Of a stretch of 64,000 nucleotides of DNA, positions 2,731 through 51,389 are shown piece after piece; positions within the stretch are counted from its first letter, which is position 1, and every line of letters begins with the position of its first letter. The notes beneath the pieces were generated by a model, which worked only from the letters and a program-made list of their open reading frames with translations, did no database searches and had not been told where the DNA came from. The translations under genes were made by a program, and so were the position numbers. Location: assembly GCA_030427835.1 (NCBI GenBank), contig JAUICN010000013.1:16663-80662 (forward strand), read 5' to 3'. The DNA comes from Polyangia bacterium. GTDB lineage: Bacteria; Myxococcota_A; Polyangia; Polyangiales; JAUICN01.

Positions 2731-3599
2731 AGGTCTTCTTCGCCAGGGTTGGCGAGGCGTTGGGTCCAGAGGATGGCGTCCTTGCGGGCGTCTCCTTCGG
2801 TAATCCCTGAGGCCAATAGCCCGGTCTTGCGGAAACCGGCGGCCACGTAGGCGGCTCCGGTTTGCACGTCATCGCTTGCGGCAAAGCCGAATGCGGAGAC
2901 GATGCCCCGCTCCTTCAGATCAGCGCACATGTGGCGCAGGCCTCCCACCAGGTTCTTAAGCTGCTTGTCGTCCTCGGGGCGGTGCATGACCTCCACCAGG
3001 GAATGACCAAAGCAATCCTGGAACTCGGCACCCAGGTAGTTGGTGGCACCCTTGGAGGCGCAGGAAAAACTGATCCGCTCGGCGTCACGGCCAAAGACGT
3101 CAAAGGAGTTGATGGACTGGCCTTTCTTAAAGCTCTTGTCGCGAAGGGCTTCCAGTTCGGTGTCTTCGATCTGTTCGACCTTGATGCCACGGAGCTCCTC
3201 TGGAATGTCCTTGGCGATCTTCTTGGCTTGCACAATGGTCTTCTCTGCGAGCTTCTGCCCGTCCTCATTGACCTCCACGCTTGCGGTCTTGTCGCCGATG
3301 ACACACCCACACACGTGGCCATCGCTGCGCTTGTAGAACCCGGGGATGGTGCCTTCGCGCACAAAGCCCACACGGGTCCAGGAGGAGACCTCATCCTTTT
3401 CCACCAGGGTGATGACTTTTTCAATGCCTTCCTTCTTGGCCATGGACTGGATGAACAGCCGCTTGGCGGGCAGCGCGCCGGCACGAAAATCAATGACGCG
3501 GATCAGCCGTGTGCGCCGGTTGAGCAGCAAGCAAAGAAATGCGCTGTCGCTGCGGAATAAAAACTCTTCAACCCAGGGCTGTTTCGACTTCGTGGCCAT
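2727..3599 (-). CDS. Tandem GNAT-fold protein resembling beta-lysine N-acetyltransferase (AblB/YodP-like)
   Basis: RIRVIDFR..AKKEGIEKVITLV..GFVREGTIPGFY and C-terminal AGFRKTGLL match my recollection of the AblB two-domain GNAT pattern. Confidence 0.55.
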   Translation of the reverse strand: MATKSKQPWVEEFLFRSDSAFLCLLLNRRTRLIRVIDFRAGALPAKRLFIQSMAKKEGIEKVITLVEKDEVSSWTRVGFVREGTIPGFYKRSDGHVCGCVIGDKTASVEVNEDGQKLAEKTIVQAKKIAKDIPEELRGIKVEQIEDTELEALRDKSFKKGQSINSFDVFGRDAERISFSCASKGATNYLGAEFQDCFGHSLVEVMHRPEDDKQLKNLVGGLRHMCADLKERGIVSAFGFAASDDVQTGAAYVAAGFRKTGLLASGITEGDARKDAILWTQRLANPGEEDL

Positions 3600-3815: not shown

Positions 3816-5564
3816 GTGCTGTCCCTCCCCCAACCAAACAATGTACGCAAACGTGGTGGCATCTACTCCCCTGTGGGTCGGCTGTCCCTCGCCCTATCTG
3901 GAGCGTTGGCCCTTTCAGGCTGTTCTGGGTTTTCGGGTTTGATTTCGGATCCCGGCGGCAACACACCCAAGAAGAACGGCGGCAACACGATTGACCTGAC
4001 GGCCGGCGACCCAGGCCATGTGGGGCCGGCTCGCCTTACCCGGGATCAATACACCCGCACCATGCAGGATCTGTTTAGCTCGGAACAAACTCCTGGCGAT
4101 CTACTTCCCACCGATGGCCTTGGTAGCAATGGCTTTCCGAATCAGGCGGAAAGCCTGACCCTGTCGGATGCCCATGTGCAGGGCATGCTGACCGGTGCCG
4201 AGAACCTGGTGGGTGAGGCCTTTTCACGGGGCCCTGTCACCGACGGGAGCTGGGGCGCGGTGCTTCCCTGCGATTGGAGGGAGATGTCCGACGAGGGCAA
4301 GAAGCAATGCGCCTACGAAACCCTGGAGGGATTTGCGTTTCGAGCGTGGCGGCGACCCCTTTCTGACCAGGAAAAATCTGAGATCCGAGGTTATTATGAT
4401 CAAGAGGCCGGCAACGAGACCTGGGAGGAATCCATCACCCGCGGGTTGATGGGCATTCTGCTTTCGCCGCAGTTCATCTACCACGTCAACGGCACCCAAG
4501 GGGACGGCGAGAAGAGGGAACTGGACCCCTACTCCCTGGCCTCACGATTGTCCTACACCGTGTGGGGCACCATGCCCGACGAGCTTCTTTTCGATTCGGC
4601 CAAGAGTGGAGACTTGATCAAGGAGGAGGAACTACTCCGTCAGGTGGACCGCATGCTGGATGACCCACGGGCGACGGAAGCACTGGTGGATTCGTTTTTC
4701 ATGAATTGGCTTCGTCTTGGACCTGCCGCGAACAATCAGTTTGGGGGCGATCACGGTGCCCGGCTTACGGGTGAATTGCGTGCCGCGATCCTTGCAGAGT
4801 TGAACCGGTTTGCGGAGGAGATTCTATTTGGTGACTACCCCATCACGGAACTGTTGTTGCACCCCACCCTGTACGTGAACGACACGTTGGCCGCCCACTA
4901 CGGCATGGCCGCTCCAGGATCGGCCACAGAGCTGGTTGCGGTGGACGCCTCGCTCGCCCAGGGCGGGCGCCAGGGGATTTTCGGGTTGGCAGGGTTCTAC
5001 ATGGCGATTTCAAACTCCCTAAAGACGGGAGCCACCCATCGTGGCCTGGTGGTTTTGGAAGTTCTTTTGGACCGGGCCCCGCCTCCGCCGCCCGCAGATG
5101 TGTTGGCCATGTTTCCCGACGTCACGGGCGACCTTGCTCCCCGTGAGTTCATGGCAATCCATAGGGCAGACCCCGCTTGCGCGGCCTGCCACAACCTCAT
5201 GGACCCTGTGGGTTTTGGTCTGGAAACCTACGACCCTATCGGCACCTATGTGTCGGAGTACGCGGAGTTCAACAATCAACCAAGGCCCACCGATGGCGTG
5301 TATGATGGACAATCCTTTGATTCGGTGGCGGAGTTGAGTGAGATCATCGCAGCCTCAGACGACTACCCCCGGGCGATGATGAAACACCTCATGGGCTATT
5401 TTGCAGGTCGAAAAATAACAGGCAGCGACGACAGCACCGTGGAAATAGCGATTCAGGACATGCGAGAAAACGGAAACACATTTCGGGATGCCATTCGCGC
5501 GGTGGTCAAGAGCGTGGTGTTTCGTGGGCAGGAAGTTCAAGAAGGAGGCGGAACATGCCAGTAG
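3816..5564 (+). CDS. DUF1587/1595/1592/1588/1585 multi-domain lipoprotein with CxxCH heme motif
   Basis: RLTRDQY, AFRAWRRPL, ILLSPQFIY..LASRLSY..W.TMPD, HRGL..L..LL, HR.DPACAACH..MDP.GFGLE.YD.IG. Lipobox LALSGC. Start revised from 3603 to GTG 3816 (TTG 3810 is an alternative). Confidence 0.85.
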   Translation: MLSLPQPNNVRKRGGIYSPVGRLSLALSGALALSGCSGFSGLISDPGGNTPKKNGGNTIDLTAGDPGHVGPARLTRDQYTRTMQDLFSSEQTPGDLLPTDGLGSNGFPNQAESLTLSDAHVQGMLTGAENLVGEAFSRGPVTDGSWGAVLPCDWREMSDEGKKQCAYETLEGFAFRAWRRPLSDQEKSEIRGYYDQEAGNETWEESITRGLMGILLSPQFIYHVNGTQGDGEKRELDPYSLASRLSYTVWGTMPDELLFDSAKSGDLIKEEELLRQVDRMLDDPRATEALVDSFFMNWLRLGPAANNQFGGDHGARLTGELRAAILAELNRFAEEILFGDYPITELLLHPTLYVNDTLAAHYGMAAPGSATELVAVDASLAQGGRQGIFGLAGFYMAISNSLKTGATHRGLVVLEVLLDRAPPPPPADVLAMFPDVTGDLAPREFMAIHRADPACAACHNLMDPVGFGLETYDPIGTYVSEYAEFNNQPRPTDGVYDGQSFDSVAELSEIIAASDDYPRAMMKHLMGYFAGRKITGSDDSTVEIAIQDMRENGNTFRDAIRAVVKSVVFRGQEVQEGGGTCQ

Positions 5565-7099
5565 GCAAGTGGACGAAGGAACGTCAACAGGCTCTTCTAC
5601 AATCAGAGATCGACGCCGCAAAACGCAGGGAACTCACCCGACGGAAGTTTCTCCAGCGCGCAGCAGCGGGTATCGCGGTGCCCACGTTGGTTTCCCTTCT
5701 TCCACGGACACTTCGGGCAGCCCCCCAACCCGGAGGCGGCACGGGCAGCATACCCAAGTCCAAGTATTTTGTGTTTTGCAATCTCCCCAACGGCATCCCC
5801 GTACATCACCCGGCCCACCAATCGGGGCCCAGTGAAGCCATGATTCCTGGGAGCCAAGGGGTTATCCAATCGCCCACCACGGTGCTTTCACCACTGCTCG
5901 ATGCGAGTACGCCGTTTACGTTGGTATCCAACCTGTATTGGAAATCTGGATGTAAAGCGCCCCTTGGGGACTACTACATGGGCCCCACCGGAAACGGCAC
6001 AGACGGCGACCACGGGCACCCTGGGGGAACGACTGCGTTTACGGGAGCCTCCCACCACCGGGGTTCCACGTACTACGGCAACCACAATGGCGCGACGATC
6101 GACCACATCATCGGCGAACACATTGCCAACCAACGCCCCTATGGACAAAAGGGTGTGCACATGCGCTTTCACAGCGGGCAGTACTCGAAGATGACCTACG
6201 CTACCCTTTCCTACCGCGGTGTGAAACAGCCCAATGTCCACCAGCACATTCCCTCTCAACTTCTATCCAACCTTTGTGTGACCAACCCCGTGGAGAACTC
6301 CGTGCCGCAAGAAGGGTCCAACGGAAACGCCAGACATCGGAGTATTTTGGACTTTGCCAGGGAGCGATTGGACAAGATGGCCTGCGAGGCCAGCGCCGAG
6401 GACCGGGCGACTCTGGACCAGTTCACCACTTCGGTGCGTGAGGTGGAAATGCGTATTCAAGATCTACCTCCGACGGCCAGCTGTGCAGGCCCCGGTACCG
6501 TGAACACAAATGTTCGGAGCGATTCGGAGGGCAAGTACCAAGATCTTTTGACGGCATTCTATCAGTTGGTTCCATTGACGCTTCAAACGGGCTCCGCACC
6601 GGTGGCCACTGTGATGTTGGACAACATTGCCAGCAATCAAACCTACGGCTACATCGGTGCATCGAACTTGCACCACGATGACAGCCACTACGGCACAGGA
6701 AATCACGACGCGACCAAGTTCAATCGGTACGCCAAAATTGTACAGCACCACGTGCGCAAGTTTGGGGAAATGGTCGAATCCCTGAAAGGCTACACCGACG
6801 TGGATGGCCAATCCGTGTACGACGGCACCACGGCGGTGTTCACCTCCAACATGGGGTCCGGCTCCTACCACGAGCAGCGGGACATGGCGGCCATCATCGC
6901 GGGGGGCGGCGGAGGCTACTGGCTGCACAACACCAACAACCAACCCATGCACGTGGCCCATCGCCCGGGCACCAGCGGCGGCCACCTAGGGGATTTCCTC
7001 TCCACCCTCGCCCGCGCCCACGGCCATCAGCAACTCGTAGGCCACAGCGACTGGGTCGACGGCATCATCCCCGAAATCACCTACACTGCCAACACCTAG
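5555..7099 (+). CDS. DUF1552 family protein with Tat-type signal
   Basis: RRKFLQRAAAG twin-Arg motif, SILD..RE....L....D...LDQF..SVRE.E.RI core, SNMGSGSYH. Overlaps the upstream DUF1592 gene, the usual partner arrangement. Confidence 0.85.
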   Translation: MPVGKWTKERQQALLQSEIDAAKRRELTRRKFLQRAAAGIAVPTLVSLLPRTLRAAPQPGGGTGSIPKSKYFVFCNLPNGIPVHHPAHQSGPSEAMIPGSQGVIQSPTTVLSPLLDASTPFTLVSNLYWKSGCKAPLGDYYMGPTGNGTDGDHGHPGGTTAFTGASHHRGSTYYGNHNGATIDHIIGEHIANQRPYGQKGVHMRFHSGQYSKMTYATLSYRGVKQPNVHQHIPSQLLSNLCVTNPVENSVPQEGSNGNARHRSILDFARERLDKMACEASAEDRATLDQFTTSVREVEMRIQDLPPTASCAGPGTVNTNVRSDSEGKYQDLLTAFYQLVPLTLQTGSAPVATVMLDNIASNQTYGYIGASNLHHDDSHYGTGNHDATKFNRYAKIVQHHVRKFGEMVESLKGYTDVDGQSVYDGTTAVFTSNMGSGSYHEQRDMAAIIAGGGGGYWLHNTNNQPMHVAHRPGTSGGHLGDFLSTLARAHGHQQLVGHSDWVDGIIPEITYTANT

Positions 7100-7219
7100 G
7101 CCAGTTCCATCCCTCAGTCACAACACCAGTTCGCTAGAAGCCGTGATCAAACGGCGAAAAAACGACCCAGGTTGAAAAAGTACGCAACTGAGTGGCGTGT
7201 CTGACCGATAAGGGAGCAC

Positions 7220-8098
7220 ATGACGATGCCCCGCCAGGTCCTGCAAGGGACCACCTACATGATAAGCCGCCGGTGCGTTGAACAACGGTTCTACTTGCAA
7301 CCCAGTGCCTGGCTCAATGCCGTTATCCTATTTCTCCTCGCCGTACTGGCTGAAATGTTTGGGATGGAAGTCCACGGTTTTACCTTCATGAGCAACCACT
7401 ATCACCTCATGATGACCGACCCCCACGGGAAAATCCCCCAGTTCATGGCACGATTCAACCGCCACTTGGCCCTCGCCGTGAAGTTCTACCACCGCATCGG
7501 AGGATGCATATTCGACCCCTGCGTCTCCTACCACGCCATGCCCCTGCTCACCCCAGAGGCGGTCCTCGACAAGCTCAGCTACATGACCCTGAACCCTGTC
7601 TCCGCTGGCCTTGTCCCCAAACCGGAGCAGTGGGAGGGCCTGAATACCTCCCCCGAACAACTCGGAACAGTTCTCCTGGAAGGGCTAAAGGTCCCTTCCT
7701 TTTTCAAACGCGTTTCCTGGGTGATTCCCAAACGATTCGTACTCACCATGCCCCCAGCCCTACGGGACCAGGACCGGGACACTGTCGTAATCACTTTGCA
7801 ACGTCTCAATGAAGACCGGCGTCGCAAGGTACGGGGCCCCTTTCGCGGGATGCAACAGGTGCACAATATCCCTGTCACCTTCCAACCAGAAACCCAGGCC
7901 CCAAACAAACCCCAGCGCATCCCCACACATTCGGCAAAAAGCACAGCCGTCTATCGCCAAGCACGTGCTTCCCTACGTGCGTTTCGCAACGCTTACCGCA
8001 ATGCCTTGCGCCATTTTCGAAACGGTCACTTCAACACACCCTTTCCTGAGGGTACCTGGTGGATGATTCACTACGGCGGCGCTTCCCTCGCTACATAG
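7220..8098 (+). CDS. REP-associated tyrosine transposase-like HUH (Y1) endonuclease, copy 1
   Basis: TYMISRRC, F.FMSNHYHL (HUH), YMTLNPV.AGLV (catalytic Tyr), C-terminal FPEGTW. SD AGGGAG upstream. Confidence 0.85.
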   Translation: MTMPRQVLQGTTYMISRRCVEQRFYLQPSAWLNAVILFLLAVLAEMFGMEVHGFTFMSNHYHLMMTDPHGKIPQFMARFNRHLALAVKFYHRIGGCIFDPCVSYHAMPLLTPEAVLDKLSYMTLNPVSAGLVPKPEQWEGLNTSPEQLGTVLLEGLKVPSFFKRVSWVIPKRFVLTMPPALRDQDRDTVVITLQRLNEDRRRKVRGPFRGMQQVHNIPVTFQPETQAPNKPQRIPTHSAKSTAVYRQARASLRAFRNAYRNALRHFRNGHFNTPFPEGTWWMIHYGGASLAT

Positions 8099-8286
8099 AG
8101 CACCCCTACACCTTGCAAGTTCCCACGGAAGCCTCTTCCCACCGCATCCGTGCGTCCACGGGCAGACACTTTTGAAAATCCTCTCCGCAGACTCACTTCC
8201 ACGGAGGCAAAACGGCAGCAATGTGCGTAACCAGAAGCTGTTCCGGTCACAAAGAGGTTGGTGCACAGGCAGCCTCGTGCCCCCAA

Positions 8287-8316
8287 TCACCCGAGTTACC
8301 CAATCAACCTGGGTGA
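8287..8316. repeat. REP-like inverted doublet (ACCCAGGTT family)
   Basis: TCACCCGAGTT-ACCCAATC-AACCTGGGTGA forms an 11-bp stem with one G-T pair and one mismatch. Confidence 0.5.
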
Positions 8317-8429
8317 GTTTGTAACAAGCGACTCGCCGGTTAGGTTTTCAATGCACAATTGGCAACGGGCCAACTCCTGGTGGAGATGACCCGCTGGGTA
8401 GGAGGATTGCCCTCCCCGGTTACCCCAGA

Positions 8430-10415
8430 CTAGTTGGCCAGGGCGGCGTCAATGGCGGCTTTGAATGCCGGGAAGGGTTGCGCCCCCTGCAGCAGTTTGC
8501 CGTTGATGAAGAAGCTGGGTGTACCGATCTGGGCACCGGCCTTGGTGACCGCCTGCTTGTCCTGATTGATGCGTGCAGCGTGGCGGTGGCTATCCAGGGC
8601 AGACTTGAACTGGGCCATGTTGATGCCTCCCACTTCCTGGGCGTACTGCTCCAGGTTGGCCCGGGAAAGGGCACGTTGGTTGGCGAACAGTTTGTCATGG
8701 TAGGCCCAGAACTTCTCATCCCCACCCTGGCGATGAACCTCCATGGAGGCCTCATGAGCAAGCTGCGCGTTTTGGTGGAACGGCAATGGGAAGTGGCGCC
8801 AAACGATGCGCACCTTGCCTGCGTACTCCTGCTTGATCTGCTGAATAGTGGGGTTCACCCGACCGCAGAATGGGCATTCAAAGTCGCTGAACTCCTGAAT
8901 CACAACCTTTGCATTCTTTGGACCGTAGGAGGGTGAGTCGTCGGTGACGGCAATGTTGTAGATCTTGTTGGGGTCCGGGCGGGCGGGCGCCTCGGCGTTG
9001 CCGCCGCCAATGGTCTGGGGCGAGGTGGCGCCATTTTTGATGCTTTCCTCATAGACCTTGGATCGGGGAGTGCCGGCTGCCACAAGCTTGTGTGCCTTTG
9101 CCAACTCCTCGTCGATGACCTTCTTGAAAGCCTCGAAGGGCTGGGCGCCCCGCAGGTTGCGACCGTTGATGAAGAAACTTGGTGTCCCGCGAGCGCCAAG
9201 CTGGGCCGCAAGCTTTTGATCCTTCTCGATGGCCGCCTGGTGCTCGTTATTGTCGATGGCGGACTTCAACTGGGCCACGTTCAGGCCAAGCTCCTGACCG
9301 TATTTCTCCAGGTCGGCACGGCTGAGGGCGGTTCGGTTGTCGAATAGCTTGTCGTGCATGGCCCAGAACTTGTCATTTCCGCCCTGGTCAAAGGCTTCCA
9401 TGGCGGTCTGATGAGCGGGGCCCGCGTTCTTGTGGAATGGCAGCGGGTTGTTGAACCACACGAATCGAACGTCGTTGCCGTATTGCTCCTTGATTTGCTT
9501 CATGGTGGGTTGCACGCGGGAGCAGAAGGGGCATTCGAAGTCGCTCACCTCAACAATGGTGACAAGCGCATCAGCTGGACCCTTGGAAGGATTGCCGTCC
9601 ACAGGAACCTTGTACACCGCGTTGGGGTCAGGCTGGGCACGGGCCTGTTGTGGTTGTTGGGGCTTGGGATCTTCGGCCTTCTCCTTGGCGTTCTTCATGA
9701 AGGCGGCGTAGAGCTGTTGGCGCTTCACACCCTTTTTGAGCAGGCCTTCCGCTGCGGCGATTTCCTCGTCGATGACTTCCTTGAACTTCTCAAAGGGCTG
9801 GGCACCGGCAAGTTTACGGCCGTTGATGAAAAACCCGGGGGTTCCGCGGGCGCCAATCTTGGAGGCAATCTGCAGGTCGGCTTGAATCACACCCATGTGA
9901 GCGTTGGAATCAAGAGCCTTCTTAAACGCTCCCATGTCAAGAGCGAGTGCCTTGGCGTGCTTCTCAAGGGTTTCACGCCCAAGGGATTTTTGGTCGCCGA
10001 AGAGTTTGTCGTGCATGGCCCAGAACTTCTTGCTGCCACCCTGCTTGAAGGCCTCGATGGAGGCCTGGTGTGCCAGGGGTGCGTCCTTATGGAAAGGAAG
10101 GGGACTGTGGCGCCAGAGAATGCGTACCTTGCCATCGTATTCCTTGAGAATGCGGGCCATGGTCGGGTTCACGCGGCTGCAGAATGGGCATTGGAAGTCA
10201 CTGAACTCCACGATGGTGACCAGCGCATCCTTCACGCCCTTCATGGGCTGGTCATCCGATACGGGAACCTTGAGGCGCTCCACGTTGTCGTCGACACCCA
10301 CGGTGACGGCTTCCTCGGCGACATCGTTGCCGGATTTTCCACCCGTGAGGTGGCCTATTAACAGGCCTCCCACAAACGCGACCAAAATCGATGCAATGGC
10401 TGAACCCTTATTCAT
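8430..10415 (-). CDS. Membrane-anchored protein with three tandem DsbA-family thioredoxin domains
   Basis: Three copies of [FV]SDF[QE]CPFC...GTP.FFING. N-terminal hydrophobic anchor. SD AAGGAG upstream. Confidence 0.9.
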   Translation of the reverse strand: MNKGSAIASILVAFVGGLLIGHLTGGKSGNDVAEEAVTVGVDDNVERLKVPVSDDQPMKGVKDALVTIVEFSDFQCPFCSRVNPTMARILKEYDGKVRILWRHSPLPFHKDAPLAHQASIEAFKQGGSKKFWAMHDKLFGDQKSLGRETLEKHAKALALDMGAFKKALDSNAHMGVIQADLQIASKIGARGTPGFFINGRKLAGAQPFEKFKEVIDEEIAAAEGLLKKGVKRQQLYAAFMKNAKEKAEDPKPQQPQQARAQPDPNAVYKVPVDGNPSKGPADALVTIVEVSDFECPFCSRVQPTMKQIKEQYGNDVRFVWFNNPLPFHKNAGPAHQTAMEAFDQGGNDKFWAMHDKLFDNRTALSRADLEKYGQELGLNVAQLKSAIDNNEHQAAIEKDQKLAAQLGARGTPSFFINGRNLRGAQPFEAFKKVIDEELAKAHKLVAAGTPRSKVYEESIKNGATSPQTIGGGNAEAPARPDPNKIYNIAVTDDSPSYGPKNAKVVIQEFSDFECPFCGRVNPTIQQIKQEYAGKVRIVWRHFPLPFHQNAQLAHEASMEVHRQGGDEKFWAYHDKLFANQRALSRANLEQYAQEVGGINMAQFKSALDSHRHAARINQDKQAVTKAGAQIGTPSFFINGKLLQGAQPFPAFKAAIDAALAN

Positions 10416-45751: not shown

Positions 45752-46597
45752 CTAGCGCTGTACGTGCACGCTGAAACTGGCGGGGTGGGCTGGCATGTTT
45801 TCAGAAAGGGATCGCAGTCTGAAAAGGCCAATGACGTTGTTTTTCGCGGGCTTTTGGAAGGGGTTCAGTTTGCCGGTCTGGCAGGCCACCTTGGCCTCGA
45901 TGACCCAACTGCCGCGCTGGCGGAGCTGGTTGCACCCGTTTCCTTCGGTGCGCTTGTTGCCCTCATTGCACTGGACCTTGAGACTCACCACCGAGCCCGC
46001 ACGGTCGTCGGTACAGTGGAAAAAGAGGTCACCCTCGTAATCGGTGAATTTGTCTCCATCGAACCGAACACGAACGGTGGGCTGATTGTTGGCAGAGGCG
46101 TTTACCACGTCGATTCGGTACCACTCGGTATCATGGTACTGAACGCACATGGGAGTCTCCTCGGAGGTGAACTTACGGTGGGCGTTCACGTCGAAGGGGG
46201 CCCAGGGCTCGGCCGCACTGGAGGAGGTGTTGTTGGGCTCGTGGGGGTCGGGGCATTCGTCGAGGCTGCCATCTCCACCATCCACTCCCGCGTCGGGTAT
46301 GGGGCCGCCCGCGTCACCCCAATTAGCAGCGTCGGGGCCGGTGTCCGCCACACCGCCGTCGAAGGGGTCCCCCTGGCCCAGGCCGGGGCTCACGGGTGCA
46401 GGCCCAAGGTCCGACGTACAGGCCACGGTGAGGGACGAGAGCAGCACCGCACATCCAATTGCCAAGGTCCCCTTGAACGGGCGAGGAATCGGGGGTGAAA
46501 CACTGTTGTCTCGGGGTACACGGTCGGGGGGAACAAACTGCACGGTAGGAGTAATGCAAGAACGAAACCAACCCCCATGGCCACTTATTGGTGCCAT
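45752..46597 (-). CDS. Hypothetical lipoprotein (DAG-rich linker, CPDPHEPNN...D.EWY module)
   Basis: Lipobox LTVAC, acidic DAG linker, Cys pairs. Start uncertain (ATG 46597 or GTG 46543). Confidence 0.65.
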   Translation of the reverse strand: MAPISGHGGWFRSCITPTVQFVPPDRVPRDNSVSPPIPRPFKGTLAIGCAVLLSSLTVACTSDLGPAPVSPGLGQGDPFDGGVADTGPDAANWGDAGGPIPDAGVDGGDGSLDECPDPHEPNNTSSSAAEPWAPFDVNAHRKFTSEETPMCVQYHDTEWYRIDVVNASANNQPTVRVRFDGDKFTDYEGDLFFHCTDDRAGSVVSLKVQCNEGNKRTEGNGCNQLRQRGSWVIEAKVACQTGKLNPFQKPAKNNVIGLFRLRSLSENMPAHPASFSVHVQR

Positions 46598-46760
46598 TTC
46601 CCTGGTTTTTCTGGATCGAGAAGAACATCGCAGGGGCATGGGAACCCCAGTTGTGGGGCCTGAACCCCACCCCCCACACCCCACCCGGGGAGCGTAGTCG
46701 CCACCCCGCCCCCCCAAAAAGCAGGTCCCGCAAACGAACCCGTACCATGCCACCTGCGCT

Positions 46761-46799
46761 GAAATCATTGATTTAATTTCGAACCTGGGTTGTTTTCAG
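46761..46799. repeat. Dispersed ~39-bp intergenic repeat, copy B; contains palindrome AAATCATTGATTT and AACCTGGGT core
   Basis: Aligns with 21869-21906 in inverted orientation with about 5 differences. Confidence 0.75.
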
Positions 46800-46801
46800 A
46801 C

Positions 46802-46832
46802 AAAAAAAGACCGGGAAAACCCGGCCTTCTTT
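46802..46832 (-). terminator. Intrinsic terminator
   Basis: Minus strand AAAGAAGGCCGGG-TTTT-CCCGGTC-TTTTTTT, downstream of 46868..47683. Confidence 0.8.
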
Positions 46833-46867
46833 GTTCCTCCTGCGGAGGCTTATCGTAGCCCTGGGGC

Positions 46868-47683
46868 CTAGAACACGCCTGCGTTCTTTTGAACGGTGAG
46901 CGCCGTGGGGATTGCAAAGCCTTCTCCGCTGTCAGAAGTAACGGCGATGGTCACACGGGCATTGTTCGCAACTCCACCAAAGAGACCCTTCTTCTTGCAC
47001 TTGGCCTCCGCCTTGAACTCAATCGGCTTAATCTCGACCGGATCTTTCCTTGTATTGATATCAACGGCTGCGTTCACGAGCTCACAACCAATCTCCACTC
47101 CATCCCGCTTGAGTACCTTGGATGCTCCGGGACAAGCGATATTGGTGACTCCAGTGGCATCCTCTTCGGTGCATTCAAAAATGGCCCGGACAGTGAACGT
47201 CTGATCCACGGCACCTGCGGGCGTCAGGAGCATGGTGACACGGGGTTTCGGGTCGTTTCCGGCACCGGTGTAACTCAGCACGTAGTAGTGGTCGTCGGAG
47301 CCTTCGAGGCAGAGATCTTTGGTTTCTTCGTACTTATTGCTTGTGGCAAAATCGTAGTTGCCCCAGTCGATGGCATCGAGGGGTTCCAGGTTGTCTTCTG
47401 GAATGCAGGCGGTGAGGGCAGAGCCGTCGGGGTCGCCGCCGTCTGTGCCACCGTCCACGCTGGCGTCGCCCGCATCACCGAGCCCAGCATCCGGAGTGTT
47501 GTTGTTCCCTGTGTCGGGGGTGTTGTTGTTTCCCGTGTCCCCGACAGAGCCGTCCGGGTCACCTTTGAAGGTGGGGCCTGGATCCTCGTTGCAACCGGCA
47601 GCCGCGAGGGCAAGCACGGCAACGGTAGAACAAAGGGCAACGTAGGAGCGTCGGTTCATGGGGACCTGTGTTGTGGCGAACAT
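46868..47683 (-). CDS. Hypothetical lipoprotein, probable distant paralog of 45752..46597
   Basis: Lipobox LAAAGC, duplicated DTGNNNTP linker, similar Cys spacing and EAK..C C-terminal segment. Confidence 0.7.
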   Translation of the reverse strand: MFATTQVPMNRRSYVALCSTVAVLALAAAGCNEDPGPTFKGDPDGSVGDTGNNNTPDTGNNNTPDAGLGDAGDASVDGGTDGGDPDGSALTACIPEDNLEPLDAIDWGNYDFATSNKYEETKDLCLEGSDDHYYVLSYTGAGNDPKPRVTMLLTPAGAVDQTFTVRAIFECTEEDATGVTNIACPGASKVLKRDGVEIGCELVNAAVDINTRKDPVEIKPIEFKAEAKCKKKGLFGGVANNARVTIAVTSDSGEGFAIPTALTVQKNAGVF

Positions 47684-47808
47684 TGTTTTTGTTTCCTTCC
47701 GGTTCGGCAGGGCCCCCTATTTGTAGGTGAACCCGCCTGTTTCCATTTTTCTTTCAGATGCGGTGTGCTTGATACGCCTCGTGTGAACAGGGCGCTGCTC
47801 AACTACAA

Positions 47809-47824
47809 AGCAACGTCCATGCCC
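47809..47824 (-). promoter_or_regulatory. sigma54-type promoter candidate
   Basis: gGGCATG-GACG-TTGCT, about 125 nt before ATG 47683. Confidence 0.45.
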
Positions 47825-47949
47825 AGAGGGGATGGCGGTAATTACGCCCTTTTTGGTTCAGGTCGAGGACAAAAACCAGGGTCTCTACACCCCACTTGCG
47901 CCCCACTGGGTGGTTTTGTCCCTGACAAGGTGCGTCATGGCCCACATTC

Positions 47950-48173
47950 GTACGCGGTCAGCGAGGTCTGTTTTCGTAGGGATCCGGTTTGTATTGAAGG
48001 AACCCCTGGAAGGAAGGGGTGCACCCTCCGTCAGCGGTTTAATTGGCGCTTCCTTCGGGCACACCCCTTCCTTCCAGGGGTTTTTCCGTACTTCAGGGTA
48101 TGGGAGCTCGCTCGTCTTCGGGAAGAAAGTGGGGTCTGTCGAGGAACGTAGAAAGACCCCGCTGACCGCGTAA
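47950..48173. mobile_element. MITE-like or structured ncRNA element (224 bp)
   Basis: 13-bp perfect inverted repeats (47951-47963 / 48160-48172) extending imperfectly to about 27 bp. Flanked by the 8-bp direct repeat CCACATTC (47942-47949, 48174-48181). Internal perfect 21-bp stem (48001-48021 / 48062-48082). Confidence 0.55.
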
Positions 48174-48199
48174 CCACATTCTACTTAGGGGGACCCAGC

Positions 48200-48898
48200 T
48201 CAGGGAGATGCCGTGAGGCGGTTGTAGCGATCGAGCACCTTCCAGACATAGCGCTGGGTGGAGGGGTAAGGAGGAATGCCGCCATGTTTGTCCACGGCGC
48301 CCTCGCCCGCATTGTAGGCTGCCAGGGACACGGGCCAATCCCCCTCAAATCGATGGAGCAGCCAGGCCAGGTAGCGGGTGCCGCCTCGGACGTTTTGCTG
48401 GGGGTTCAGGGAATTTTGCACGCCCATGGCCGCCGCCGTACGGGGCATAAGCTGCATGAGCCCCTGGGCGCCGGCGGGCGAAACGGCGTCCGGAACGCCG
48501 GCACTCTCCACCTGAATGACGGCGAGTATGAGGGGCACGGGGACGCCAAACTCCGCGGAGGCCGCGGTGGCCATGGCGTGCAGTCGATCCTGGGACAAGG
48601 GTGGGGTGGTGGAACGGCGGCGACGGGACACCCTGGATGGATGCCCTGATGGGGATTTTGCCCTGGATTGGGGCGAGAGCTCTCCGTAGGAATCCCGGGG
48701 GCGCGAACGGACCACACGGCTGCAGTGGCGGGCATGCCTACCCCTTGGCCGTTTGGTGGTGAAATGGCTGGTGCCTTCCGAGTCCACGCATTCGTAAATG
48801 TGCGCGTGGGCCCCGGGGGCCGAGAAAAGAGCCCCGAGCACAAGGGCGGATCCTACCAGGCCGTATGGGATTGCTGTTTTTGTGGGTCGAAGCGCCAT
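48200..48898 (-). CDS. Lytic transglycosylase (SLT) with N-terminal DUF4124-like segment
   Basis: Signal, IYECVD.EG..HFT, AVIQVES, AVSPAGAQGLMQLMP, AAYNAGEGAV, T..YV..V. Confidence 0.92.
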   Translation of the reverse strand: MALRPTKTAIPYGLVGSALVLGALFSAPGAHAHIYECVDSEGTSHFTTKRPRGRHARHCSRVVRSRPRDSYGELSPQSRAKSPSGHPSRVSRRRRSTTPPLSQDRLHAMATAASAEFGVPVPLILAVIQVESAGVPDAVSPAGAQGLMQLMPRTAAAMGVQNSLNPQQNVRGGTRYLAWLLHRFEGDWPVSLAAYNAGEGAVDKHGGIPPYPSTQRYVWKVLDRYNRLTASP

Positions 48899-48939
48899 GG
48901 GTGGGTCCAGCCTAGGGGGCCGTTGCGGATTCAGGGTAC

Positions 48940-49488
48940 ATGGGGATGCCCCGCGGGGCCAGAACCCCTATGTTGCGGCCCGACATGACTCCCTCCAAGT
49001 TCACTCCCCTGGGTACGCCACCTGCCGATACCCCCAGTTCTCCAACCACCTCCAGTGGAACACCCCAGGGGCCACGCCTATTCCTTTCGCGCCTGTTTGC
49101 GGGATTGCTGCAGGTCGGATTGGCGGCAGGGCTTGGCTCCGCCGTGGCCTGGGGTTTGCCTGCCCGGTGGCCTTCCATGGACGGGTGGCTGATCACATTG
49201 ACCGGCCTGGGCGTGCTTGGCGGCCTGGGATTGGTATGGGGGCACCCGATGGGCCGGCGCCTTTCGGCCGTGGCTTCGGTGGCGTGGTTGGTGAGCGGGT
49301 TGTTGCTGGTTACCCTGCTGAGCTTTTCTTCTAGCTACCTTGCGGGCCTCTATGGCCCCGTGGGGCAAGGCGGCGCTGCCCTGTTTGCGGTGGCCGCCCT
49401 GTTGGTGCTGGCCTATTTGGTGATTTTCCCGGTGGTCATTCTCTTTGCGTCGCGTACCCAGGCCCACGCCACCCCAGGAAAGGCCTAG
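48940..49488 (+). CDS. Small four-TM membrane protein
   Basis: Four hydrophobic segments; 5 bp from the downstream gene. Confidence 0.65.
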   Translation: MGMPRGARTPMLRPDMTPSKFTPLGTPPADTPSSPTTSSGTPQGPRLFLSRLFAGLLQVGLAAGLGSAVAWGLPARWPSMDGWLITLTGLGVLGGLGLVWGHPMGRRLSAVASVAWLVSGLLLVTLLSFSSSYLAGLYGPVGQGGAALFAVAALLVLAYLVIFPVVILFASRTQAHATPGKA

Positions 49489-49493
49489 GGCCC

Positions 49494-51389
49494 GTGCTGG
49501 GTTTGCTTCCGTTTCGGCTGGGCTTTCGGGGAACCGTGTTGGCACTGGTCCTGTGCTGGCTCACCGCGACCGCGATTTTCTCCTACGGGATTGCCGTTCG
49601 CGTGCGCACCCACGCGCCCGTCGCCACCTACCATGCCGATCAGGTTCTCGAGATGCTGGAATCGGCGCTATCGGAATCGATGCCGTCGGAATCGAGTGTG
49701 CCCACCGACACGGCGGCCTTGGTGGACATCTGGCGTGCCCCTGGAGTGGCGCCCATGTTTCTGGACCACTGGTGTGATGGCTCCCGCCAGTTTCGGGCCA
49801 ACCCCTACAGGGATAGGGAAACATCCCACAAGGAACTCACACGGTATCTGCGGCAGGACCTGCAACAGGACCTCCAGGGGCACCACCGCAAAACCTGCCA
49901 TTGGGTGGTAAGCGAACTGGGGGCACCACGGCCCATGTGGGGCAAGCCCAGGTGGCTGCGGCCTTTTTCATTGGTGCCCATGGTGGAAGGCATCCAGGCC
50001 CGTTTTGGCGCCGGCGTGGCGACCTTGCTTCCAGACGATCTTTGGGCCCTGGGGATCGCCCAGGGATCCCTACAAACGGGGCTTACCGAAGTGCGATTGG
50101 GCATGGACACCAATGCCGCGTTGGACGCCATGGCAAAAGAACTTTCAACCGATCGCGAAACCCTGCTGAGGGAGGGCGCGTTCATTCGGTCGCGCGTGCG
50201 GCGGCATTCCAGGGCCTTCGAGTTCCCGTTTCAGGGCCGCGCCACAGGTGAGCCACAACCGCCACTGACACCCGATCGACTTGAGGAGGCGGCCGTGGCT
50301 GGGGCTGAGTTCCTGTTGAGGCACCAGGCGGAGGCGGGCTTTTTTGCCTACGTCTACGATGGACGGAACAACCGGGTGGACAACGATGGCTACAACCTGA
50401 CGCGCCACGCGGGCTCGGCCTATTTTCTAGCGCAGGTTGCAGGGATCGCAGGGCACGCCGGCGCACTGCAAGGATCCCGACGCGCGCTGGAGTGGACCTA
50501 CAAACATTTTGCAAAACCCTGTGGGGAACACATGTGCATTTCCTCCTCGGATGGGACCGCGCGCCTGGGCGAAACCACCCTGACTGCCCTGGCCACCGCG
50601 GAGTTCATCCATGCAACGATCTTGCAAAACACACCCGCTCCCCGACGCACAAAGGAACGGTTGATTGGGCTCATGGCGTTTTTACAATCCCAACAACGCC
50701 AGGATGGGGAACTCATGCACGAGTACGACCTGGTGAACCGGGCGCCCATCGACGTGCAACACCTCTATTTCAGCGGGCAGGCCGCACTTGCGTTTGCCCG
50801 GGCGGCTTTGACCATGGAGGATCAACGCCAGGAATACCTTGCGGCCGCCAACCGCATTGTGACTCGACTGACCCAGGGCGGTTGGGACTTTTTTGGCAAC
50901 CAATACTACTTCGGCGAAGAACACTGGACGTGCCTTGCGGCAGGGGAGTTGGGTCCGAGTATGCTACCGGAGCGAGTGACCCGGGCGCGGGAGTTCTGTG
51001 CCAACTGGGCAGAGTTCGCCCGGAGCTACCAATACGGCCCTGGGGTCACGCCCTGGAGATCCGAAGGCCTCTATGGAATGGGGCCCATCATGGTGCCTCG
51101 CATTACGCCGACGTCGTCCAGAACGGAAGCGTTTATTTCAACCTGGGATCTTGAGAAGCACCACGGCACGGATCGAGACACTGCGGAATCCATCCGGCGC
51201 CAAATCGAAGCGGGCCTCCAGGGGTTGCTTCGTTACCAATGGACACCTGGGCCCGTTCACCTGTTTCGGGATCCCGCGGCGGCCCACGGGGGAATGCCAG
51301 GCAGCCCCGCCGAATTGTTTTCGCGCAACGACTACGTGCAACACGCCTGCAGCGCCATGATTCGATGGTCCCAGCGGCTACGGGAGTAG
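49494..51389 (+). CDS. Membrane-anchored protein with probable (alpha/alpha)-barrel C-terminal domain (possibly AMMECR1-associated family)
   Basis: FLLRHQ...G.F.Y.YD......YNL.RHAG..Y.L, FL.SQQ.QDG, helical repeats. Confidence 0.5.
   Translation: MLGLLPFRLGFRGTVLALVLCWLTATAIFSYGIAVRVRTHAPVATYHADQVLEMLESALSESMPSESSVPTDTAALVDIWRAPGVAPMFLDHWCDGSRQFRANPYRDRETSHKELTRYLRQDLQQDLQGHHRKTCHWVVSELGAPRPMWGKPRWLRPFSLVPMVEGIQARFGAGVATLLPDDLWALGIAQGSLQTGLTEVRLGMDTNAALDAMAKELSTDRETLLREGAFIRSRVRRHSRAFEFPFQGRATGEPQPPLTPDRLEEAAVAGAEFLLRHQAEAGFFAYVYDGRNNRVDNDGYNLTRHAGSAYFLAQVAGIAGHAGALQGSRRALEWTYKHFAKPCGEHMCISSSDGTARLGETTLTALATAEFIHATILQNTPAPRRTKERLIGLMAFLQSQQRQDGELMHEYDLVNRAPIDVQHLYFSGQAALAFARAALTMEDQRQEYLAAANRIVTRLTQGGWDFFGNQYYFGEEHWTCLAAGELGPSMLPERVTRAREFCANWAEFARSYQYGPGVTPWRSEGLYGMGPIMVPRITPTSSRTEAFISTWDLEKHHGTDRDTAESIRRQIEAGLQGLLRYQWTPGPVHLFRDPAAAHGGMPGSPAELFSRNDYVQHACSAMIRWSQRLRE

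Follow-up and report, generated by a model that had tools for sequence, protein, structure and literature searches.

Downstream of a cell-wall enzyme (SLT) gene in the genome of a free-living, uncultured myxobacterium lies a structured insert of 224 bp, and the question raised by this locus is whether the insert is a piece of mobile DNA, a structured RNA or an orphan retron locus. The window, i.e. the whole 64,000-nt stretch of DNA that was analysed, corresponds to C23:16663-80662 of a MAG of 3.3 Mb (30 contigs, ~98% complete). All features listed in the original prediction (8-bp repeats, inverted ends, a 27-bp imperfect outer stem, a 21-bp inner stem and a competing hairpin) were found again at the same coordinates, and they are collected with the neighboring genes in Table 1.

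Table 1. Features of the element and its surroundings, with positions counted in the window
Feature	Position	Strand	Remarks
Terminator-like hairpin and T-run downstream of the element	47877-47894	-	Consensus match only
Next ORF downstream, 271 aa	46868-47683	-	~260 nt past the element
Left 8-bp direct repeat CCACATTC, candidate target-site duplication	47942-47949		1-nt spacer (g) to the inverted end
Left terminal inverted repeat TACGCGGTCAGCG	47951-47977		13 nt perfect (47951-47963); 27 nt at 85%
Left connector, inverted end to hairpin	47978-47994	-	Common to the C18 copy
Hairpin-family unit, short form, subfamily 1	47995-48086	-	Covariance model R1, nhmmer, fold, covariation
Inner stem	48001-48026 with 48057-48082		21 bp perfect; 26 nt at 92%
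Conserved family core (P2, internal loop, P3 and apical loop) GTGTGCCCGAAGGAAGCGCCAATTAAACCGCTGACGGAGGGTGC	48021-48064	-	
Right connector	48087-48145		Genome-unique by BLAST except the terminal 17-19 nt
Competing small hairpin	48128-48140 with 48151-48163		Right connector and part of the right end
Right terminal inverted repeat	48146-48172		Perfect 13-mer at 48160-48172, the exact reverse complement of TACGCGGTCAGCG
Right 8-bp direct repeat CCACATTC	48174-48181		SLT stop codon 18 nt upstream of the repeat
SLT-domain lytic transglycosylase gene	48200-48898	-	PF01464, E 2.7e-29; element in its 3′ untranslated region

Anatomy and fold of the window element

The element and both neighboring genes lie on the same strand. 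The 224-bp element has no coding capacity, and the ORFs that cross it are only long, non-gene-like frames; the 271-aa ORF on its downstream side had no match in a Pfam search. Both strands of the element are predicted to fold very stably, with -119.4 kcal/mol for the plus strand (z -6.9) and -113.7 kcal/mol for the minus strand (z -8.1), and in either case none of 200 shuffles folded as well. A transcript of the SLT gene that ran on through the element would carry the minus-strand rod of -114 kcal/mol in its 3′ UTR, which could stabilise or punctuate the SLT mRNA; we regard this as a side effect. The hairpin in the middle of the element comprises a long stem P1, stem P2 (GUGUGCCC/GGGUGCAC), an internal loop (GAAGGA / GACGGA), a 4-bp stem P3 and the apical loop CCAAUUAAAC. 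It was located by nhmmer at C23:64657-64748, and the covariance model R1 (see below) scored it at 98.8 bits on the minus strand versus 40.4 bits on the plus strand. On the minus strand, the left inverted end and the left connector form the 3′ tail of this hairpin.

Two readings of this layout had been proposed and can be dealt with at once. The arrangement of outer repeats around a long hairpin resembles that of an orphan retron msr-msd locus making msDNA, and this resemblance is what speaks for such a locus. However, the whole MAG (~98% complete) contains no PF00078/RVT_1 match in a search that detected the control genomes, and the retron is rejected for that reason; the hairpin is, in addition, a 16-copy dispersed repeat, some copies of which lie inside an ORF. 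We give the retron practically no chance. The long rod-like fold, for its part, is reminiscent of 6S RNA or another known riboregulator. A search of Rfam (Rfam 15) with permissive filters, which covered the window region and three long-form loci of the hairpin family, returned chance matches to miRNA models or nothing, and positions 46500-49500 contain no match to RF00013 at E ≤ 10 and no known family. Moreover, the canonical 6S RNA of this genome is located elsewhere (C12:25820-26006, 58.9 bits, above the cut-off), and the central open bubble is absent from the element, so that a 6S-like identity can be dismissed with near certainty. For annotation, this means that the rod should be called neither an sRNA nor a retron.

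The hairpin belongs to a dispersed repeat family

When the 240 nt of the element with its flanking repeats were compared with the whole genome by BLAST, a partial copy was found on C18, and parts of C27 and C9 matched the centre of the hairpin. The covariance model R1 was built from six copies (alignment A1), and its search of the genome returned ten full copies, to which nhmmer added one more (C9:68553-68637). A copy on C27, referred to as C27c, is split within the apical loop. Four long forms, on C25, C15, C17 and C9, were traced from two half-matches. The family thus has at least 16 members, of which 12 are short (~95 nt) and four are long (~190 nt). The basal helices of the long forms are unchanged, and a conserved multi-hairpin domain of ~115 nt replaces the apical loop. 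The 21-bp inner stem of the original prediction is present as described, but it does not stand alone: by both the covariance model and nhmmer it is a member of this separate, 16-copy hairpin family. The family is new; its kind (MITE, REP and RPE-like repeats) is already known (PMC10969869).

The consensus of the core, read on the window minus strand, is GGUGUGCCC-GRAGGA-(4-bp stem)-CCAAYUAAAC-(stem)-GACGGA-GGGUGCNCC. The long stem that encloses it has a different sequence in each copy, and the mean pairwise identity is 0.78 for the core versus 0.57 for the outer stem. The difference is larger still within subfamily 2, where the corresponding values are 0.93 and 0.58. A close-up of this pattern is provided by two hairpin copies at C27:149100-149420, which lie 166 nt apart and have cores that are 98% identical. 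Their outer stems share 7 bp and are wholly different from there on, yet each is perfectly paired. The spacer motif A(C/G)AACATACCCC is repeated before, between and after this pair. The second hairpin stops 17 nt short of the start codon of a ridA-like gene, and these 17 nt contain no Shine-Dalgarno sequence.

Covariation and the folded strand

The stems co-vary across the short copies. In an alignment of ten of them, 98.7% of the cells are paired and compensatory changes occur at 22 of the 31 pairs; none of 500 shuffles matches the observed pairing, and no shift of register approaches it either. The cells that are not Watson-Crick pairs comprise 29 G.U, 1 A.C and 3 U.U. The strand that carries the G.U pairs (the sense strand) always has a more stable fold than its complement. 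From this bias and the fold stabilities together it follows that the relevant fold is that of the window minus strand, either as RNA or as single-stranded DNA.

A near-invariant core within fully compensated stems is also expected of a functional RNA, and this counts against a purely selfish origin of the family. The hairpins might accordingly be a structured RNA that the host uses, cis-acting or as a small RNA, in which the internal loop (GRAGGA / GACGGM) and the apical loop would bind protein or RNA. The SLT 3′ UTR would then contain one such RNA, that of the window element, and expression of the mutasome operon would be tuned by the copies located in dnaE2 and between imuA and imuB. We consider this unlikely, though by no means negligible. 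Besides the strong covariation and the conserved core, it would account for the restriction of G.U pairs to one strand (29 versus one A.C) and for the conserved multi-helix apical domain of the long form; further points on both sides come from the surroundings and the orientation of the copies.

Gene contexts of the copies

The copies occupy varied positions relative to genes. Three of them (C18, the window copy and C27c) follow genes in co-oriented strings, others lie in divergent spacers (C27a/b, C27_42, C9_91 and C17), and the copy on C25 is located between convergent genes. Three copies are antisense to a neighbor gene: C29, which lies between coaX and ligA and is antisense to both, and C15 and C9_93, which are found directly after TonB-dependent receptor genes and antisense to them. 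The family is also locally clustered: a 26-kb stretch of C9 contains six copies, and a 2.3-kb stretch of C27 contains three. In favor of a host-used RNA, of the seven short copies that are informative, six run in the sense direction of the transcription unit to which they belong. Against it, the C29 copy can be read only from the non-coding strand of its unit, and no promoter or terminator frames the copies.

Two copies are contained in a single continuous dnaE2 ORF of 1222 aa (with PHP, pol3-alpha, finger, HhH and OB domains). They are translated in different reading frames, as VPRGKTTQLLTAGA and CAQRKNNPTFDGGC, and each falls in a linker that is of variable length in the homologues, which have 1020-1060 aa. 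Homologues of this DnaE2 bear names such as Myxococcales, Myxococcota and Polyangiales. These in-frame copies explain why this DnaE2 is ~190 residues longer than its homologues, and they show that palindromic repeats are tolerated in frame in a DNA polymerase. As is characteristic of RPEs, the dnaE2 pair is intragenic and conserved at the level of nucleotides rather than peptides. A third copy is located in the same operon, in the spacer between the imuA-like and imuB-like genes. The presence of three copies in one SOS-type operon would suit a regulatory RNA, but the location of two of them inside an ORF, in different frames, would not. Since two members lie in frame inside dnaE2, we interpret the family as selfish DNA of a known kind and not as a new RNA gene.

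The imuA-like / imuB-like / dnaE2 operon with its three hairpin copies is found on the minus strand of C9:66000-80000 (local positions 3977-10180). At the protein level, the two DnaE2 inserts are low-complexity segments of 70-95 aa in variable linkers. The same two sites are occupied by inserts of PLPEGEGG-type repeats in P0040, a distant homologue of 1178 aa.

The apical loop of C27c is broken exactly at a TA by an unrelated MITE of 168 bp. This interruption indicates that classical MITEs are, or were, active in the genome and that a broken hairpin copy is tolerated, and such tolerance is a further point against a role as a structured RNA. The 168-bp MITE has TAyWGCGCACCTCATT as its inverted ends, shows a TA duplication and is present in at least 20 copies of 92-99% identity. 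It is often found at contig ends (C27:1-109, C10:1-146, C26:2-119 and C23:1-101), and further copies are present on C19, C7, C8, C9 and C18; within C27:144000-153000 it occupies local positions 3185-3375.

Copy orientation and strand asymmetry

The hairpin strand coincides with the locally C/A-rich strand in all 16 copies, and in 10 of 10 independent clusters. Strand asymmetry therefore predicts the orientation of a copy and the direction of the neighboring gene does not. That orientation tracks the chromosome strand and not the gene direction is again at odds with a host-used RNA. The 168-bp MITE is strand-locked as well, in 17 of its 20 copies, and the strand rule may therefore be a genome-wide constraint rather than a mechanism that belongs to the hairpin family.

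The strand asymmetry of this genome is itself extreme and bimodal, with whole contigs at GC skews of ±0.15-0.19 and AT skews of opposite sign, and other contigs near zero. The skew is equal inside plus- and minus-strand ORFs and thus independent of ORF orientation. Asymmetric contigs include C9, C18, C25 and C29 on one side and C30, C15 and C27 on the other; the window contig, C23, has a low skew. The C/A-rich strand carries 35 of the 45 tRNA genes and dnaA, which hints that it is leading-strand sequence (i.e. the lagging-strand template), but essential operons are mixed with respect to this assignment and there is no switch of skew on the dnaA contig. With this assignment, the gene-rich strand would be C-rich, the reverse of the usual rule.

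Taken as a whole, the varied gene contexts, the dnaE2 copies, the MITE-broken copy, the local clustering and the common strand argue for a selfish repeat. We conclude that the window element is probably non-autonomous mobile-type DNA, composed of a hairpin repeat inside a MITE-like shell and belonging among the MITE/REP/RPE-like selfish repeats. The near-invariant loops with compensated stems, the ~115-nt multi-helix domain of the long form and the strand lock (in a genome with a GC skew of up to 0.2) would also fit a class of element, yet to be described, that functions through one folded strand. Its members would be either a new single-strand-DNA mobile element or a domesticated hairpin acting on replication or expression, including that of imuA-imuB-dnaE2. 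We judge such a class to be quite unlikely.

The outer shell: inverted ends and candidate target duplication

The original prediction favored a MITE with an 8-bp target duplication. The inverted ends, the abutting 8-bp duplication, the lack of an ORF, the small size and the recurrence of the terminus all agree with this, but the element is represented by one full copy, and no autonomous partner was found. MITEs are normally multi-copy. The TACGCGGTCAGCG inverted ends and the duplication are present in the window copy alone among the 16 family members. The search for further copies by BLASTn was successful in part: apart from the hairpin-centre matches, it recovered the partial copy at C18:140364-140498, a stretch of 135 nt with 97% identity that covers end, connector and hairpin and has no second arm, but no second full copy. 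The homology between the window and C18 copies stops sharply at the terminus ...CGCTGACCGCGTA (...GCGTA). The genome of 3.3 Mb contains the 13-mer of the end five times (twice on C23, once each on C18 and C8, and on C15 with one mismatch), where ~0.1 occurrences would be expected. Copies with these ends thus comprise one full element, one partial element (C18) and two solo termini (C8 and C15).

The chance occurrence of the ends was estimated by shuffling. Among 3000 shuffles of the region, 6 produced a perfect inverted repeat of 13 nt within 300 nt. Once such a repeat is in place, the probability that an 8-mer direct repeat abuts both of its ends (offset ≤2 nt) is ~1.7e-4. In a control for the flanks, repeats of at least 8 nt between two 140-nt flanks were present at 8 of the 16 family copies. 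Because such repeats are frequent in C/A-rich DNA, the significance of the window 8-mer comes only from its position against the inverted ends. No abutting target duplications were found at the other family copies, where the repeats are at chance level. A conserved 3′ tail past the hairpin was likewise not significant among the copies, except between C18 and the window, and no empty-site joint was seen in two DNA runs from the source sample (identical data). No autonomous IS with the same ends is present in the assembly (the MAG may lack its IS copies).

The shell might instead have arisen by a local inverted duplication, or by recombination between the tails of two hairpin-family copies, in which case the true element would be the ~95-nt hairpin unit with its 3′ tail, as seen at C18, and the 8-bp repeat would be a coincidence or a by-product. 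Such an origin would explain why there is one full copy only, why the assembly has no transposase with these ends and why the C18 locus contains the hairpin and tail without a second arm, with a hairpin base that is better paired than that of the window copy; 8-mers repeated between flanks are, besides, common in this DNA. It does not, however, account for 8-mers that abut both ends with 1-nt spacers or for the five sites of the 13-mer. The arms are, moreover, 85% and not 100% identical, so the duplication would not be a fresh one. We give a local duplication some weight but hold it to be improbable, and we prefer the MITE-like shell.

The two solo termini have features of their own. Sites C8:64745-64790 and C15:209595-209640 have in common a 42-nt motif, GG-TACGCGGTCAGCRGGGTGGTTCAGCGCGGCTGGAGTGCT, that opens with the 13-mer of the window element. 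One of these sites lies 6 nt past the stop codon of a chorismatase-like gene and the other ~100 nt before an ORF. No transposase domain was found beside either terminus.

Candidate enzymes

Matches to Y1_Tnp in the genome comprise a clear one on C3 (49.9 bits) and two weak ones on C6 and C23, and none of these Y1/HUH-type candidates is linked to the hairpin family. At C3:33100-34060, the perfect palindrome CAATTGTTTCACGTGAAACAATTG flanks this gene, which is of the IS200/RAYT type, in four copies. With a single near-copy on C1 the palindrome is present at five sites in all, on C3 and C1 only, and neither contig carries a hairpin copy.

We considered three possible associations and rejected each of them. 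A REP/REPIN-RAYT system would have hairpins next to its Y1 gene, but no hairpin copy flanks such a gene and the C3 gene has its own palindrome. Nor do the hairpins have the conserved stem and 5′ tetranucleotide of that system, as their stems are 57% identical versus 78% for the core (93% for the core in subfamily 2). A link to the two HUH-like ORFs of the window was not borne out: they have no Pfam match at E ≤ 0.001 and reach at best 17 bits with Y1_Tnp, and the motifs at their ends bear no relation to the hairpin. Integron attC sites have conserved outer R''/R' core sites (RYYYAAC / GTTRRRY), a variable centre and an arrangement in cassette arrays. The hairpin family displays the opposite, with a conserved centre and variable stems; it also lacks GTT/AAC end boxes and has housekeeping neighbors.

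Distribution in other genomes

None of the other genomes compared belongs to the taxonomic family of the source genome. The 240 nt had no BLAST match in 40 relatives, and a search with R1 of ~600 Myxococcota genomes (200 of the order and 400 of the phylum) returned no convincing copy of the hairpin. The absence of the hairpin family from these genomes speaks against a host-used RNA. Two weak R1 matches were obtained outside the source genome, in G218 (44.8 bits, doubtful) and in G161 (34 bits, at chance level). BLAST against plasmids and phages gave no match, and neither did scans of genome, metagenome and viral collections with the exact patterns of the short core and the long-form hairpin. 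Among metagenomes, the locus was found only in the source metagenome.

The G218 match (C33, local positions 1400-1720) is a long hairpin, rich in purines, whose centre of 61 nt is not that of the family. It is flanked on both sides by the palindrome GTGTTCCACGTGGAACA, which resembles the palindrome beside the Y1 gene on C3 of the source genome.

Proposed origin of the element

The probable selfish origin of the window element can be described as two layers. The shell would be the footprint of a single transposase-mediated insertion of a composite, MITE-like unit, and the middle of this unit is one copy of the hairpin family. The family itself would have spread at the DNA level, presumably by means of a trans-acting protein that recognises one particular strand when it is folded into the hairpin with the conserved loops. 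At a later time, the window copy together with flanks of 50-90 nt would have moved once as cargo between two TACGCGGTCAGCG ends, perhaps by the action of a DDE-type enzyme that the assembly lacks. The locus would then be an example of nested selfish DNA in a free-living myxobacterium, in which one hairpin copy is enclosed in a MITE-like shell and a different MITE has broken another copy.

Comparison with known repeats

Two properties of the family go beyond textbook REPs and MITEs, namely the design with conserved loops and variable stems and the strict strand lock in a strongly asymmetric genome. ERIC and BOX elements are similar in that they, too, are imperfect palindromes, fall into size classes that arose through internal insertions or deletions, and are co-transcribed with neighbor genes. 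The hairpins have no sequence similarity to them and occur in other hosts, and to our knowledge no strand lock has been reported for ERIC or BOX families. The PATEs derived from IS200/IS605 offer a working analogy only, with a hairpin that functions on one strand and an orientation locked to the replication strand. Elements of the PATE type have two subterminal hairpins and a fixed tetra- or pentanucleotide target, with no TIR or TSD. Like REP/REPIN-RAYT systems, the family consists of short dispersed hairpins that are mostly extragenic and strand-specific, in a genome that encodes Y1-type transposases. In REP elements, however, conservation lies in the stems, to which a 5′ GTAG-type tag is attached, whereas in the hairpin family the stems vary and the loops are conserved.

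RPEs are palindromic repeats of ~100-150 nt that are also found in frame inside housekeeping genes (Ogata et al. 2000, via PMC10969869). The hairpin family shares with them the in-frame palindromic copies at permissive loops and the conservation at the nucleotide level. It differs in having no sequence relationship to RPEs, in its occurrence in another phylum (free-living Myxococcota), in the low number of intragenic copies (2 of 16), and in its conserved loops, variable stems and short and long forms.

Among prokaryotic MITEs, QMITE2 of Coxiella burnetii is composed of 7-9 bp direct repeats, 23-29 bp TIRs and a core of 113-145 bp, and the fold of its transcript was calculated at about -113 kcal/mol (reviewed in PMC10969869). 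The window element is close to this in its architecture. It is 224 bp long, has imperfect TIRs of 27 bp and an 8-bp duplication, contains no ORF, lies in an intergenic stretch immediately behind a gene and is predicted to fold as a rod at about -114 to -119 kcal/mol. Unlike MITEs, it has a single full copy, no known parent IS and DNA that is not AT-rich, and its core belongs to a second, independent repeat family.
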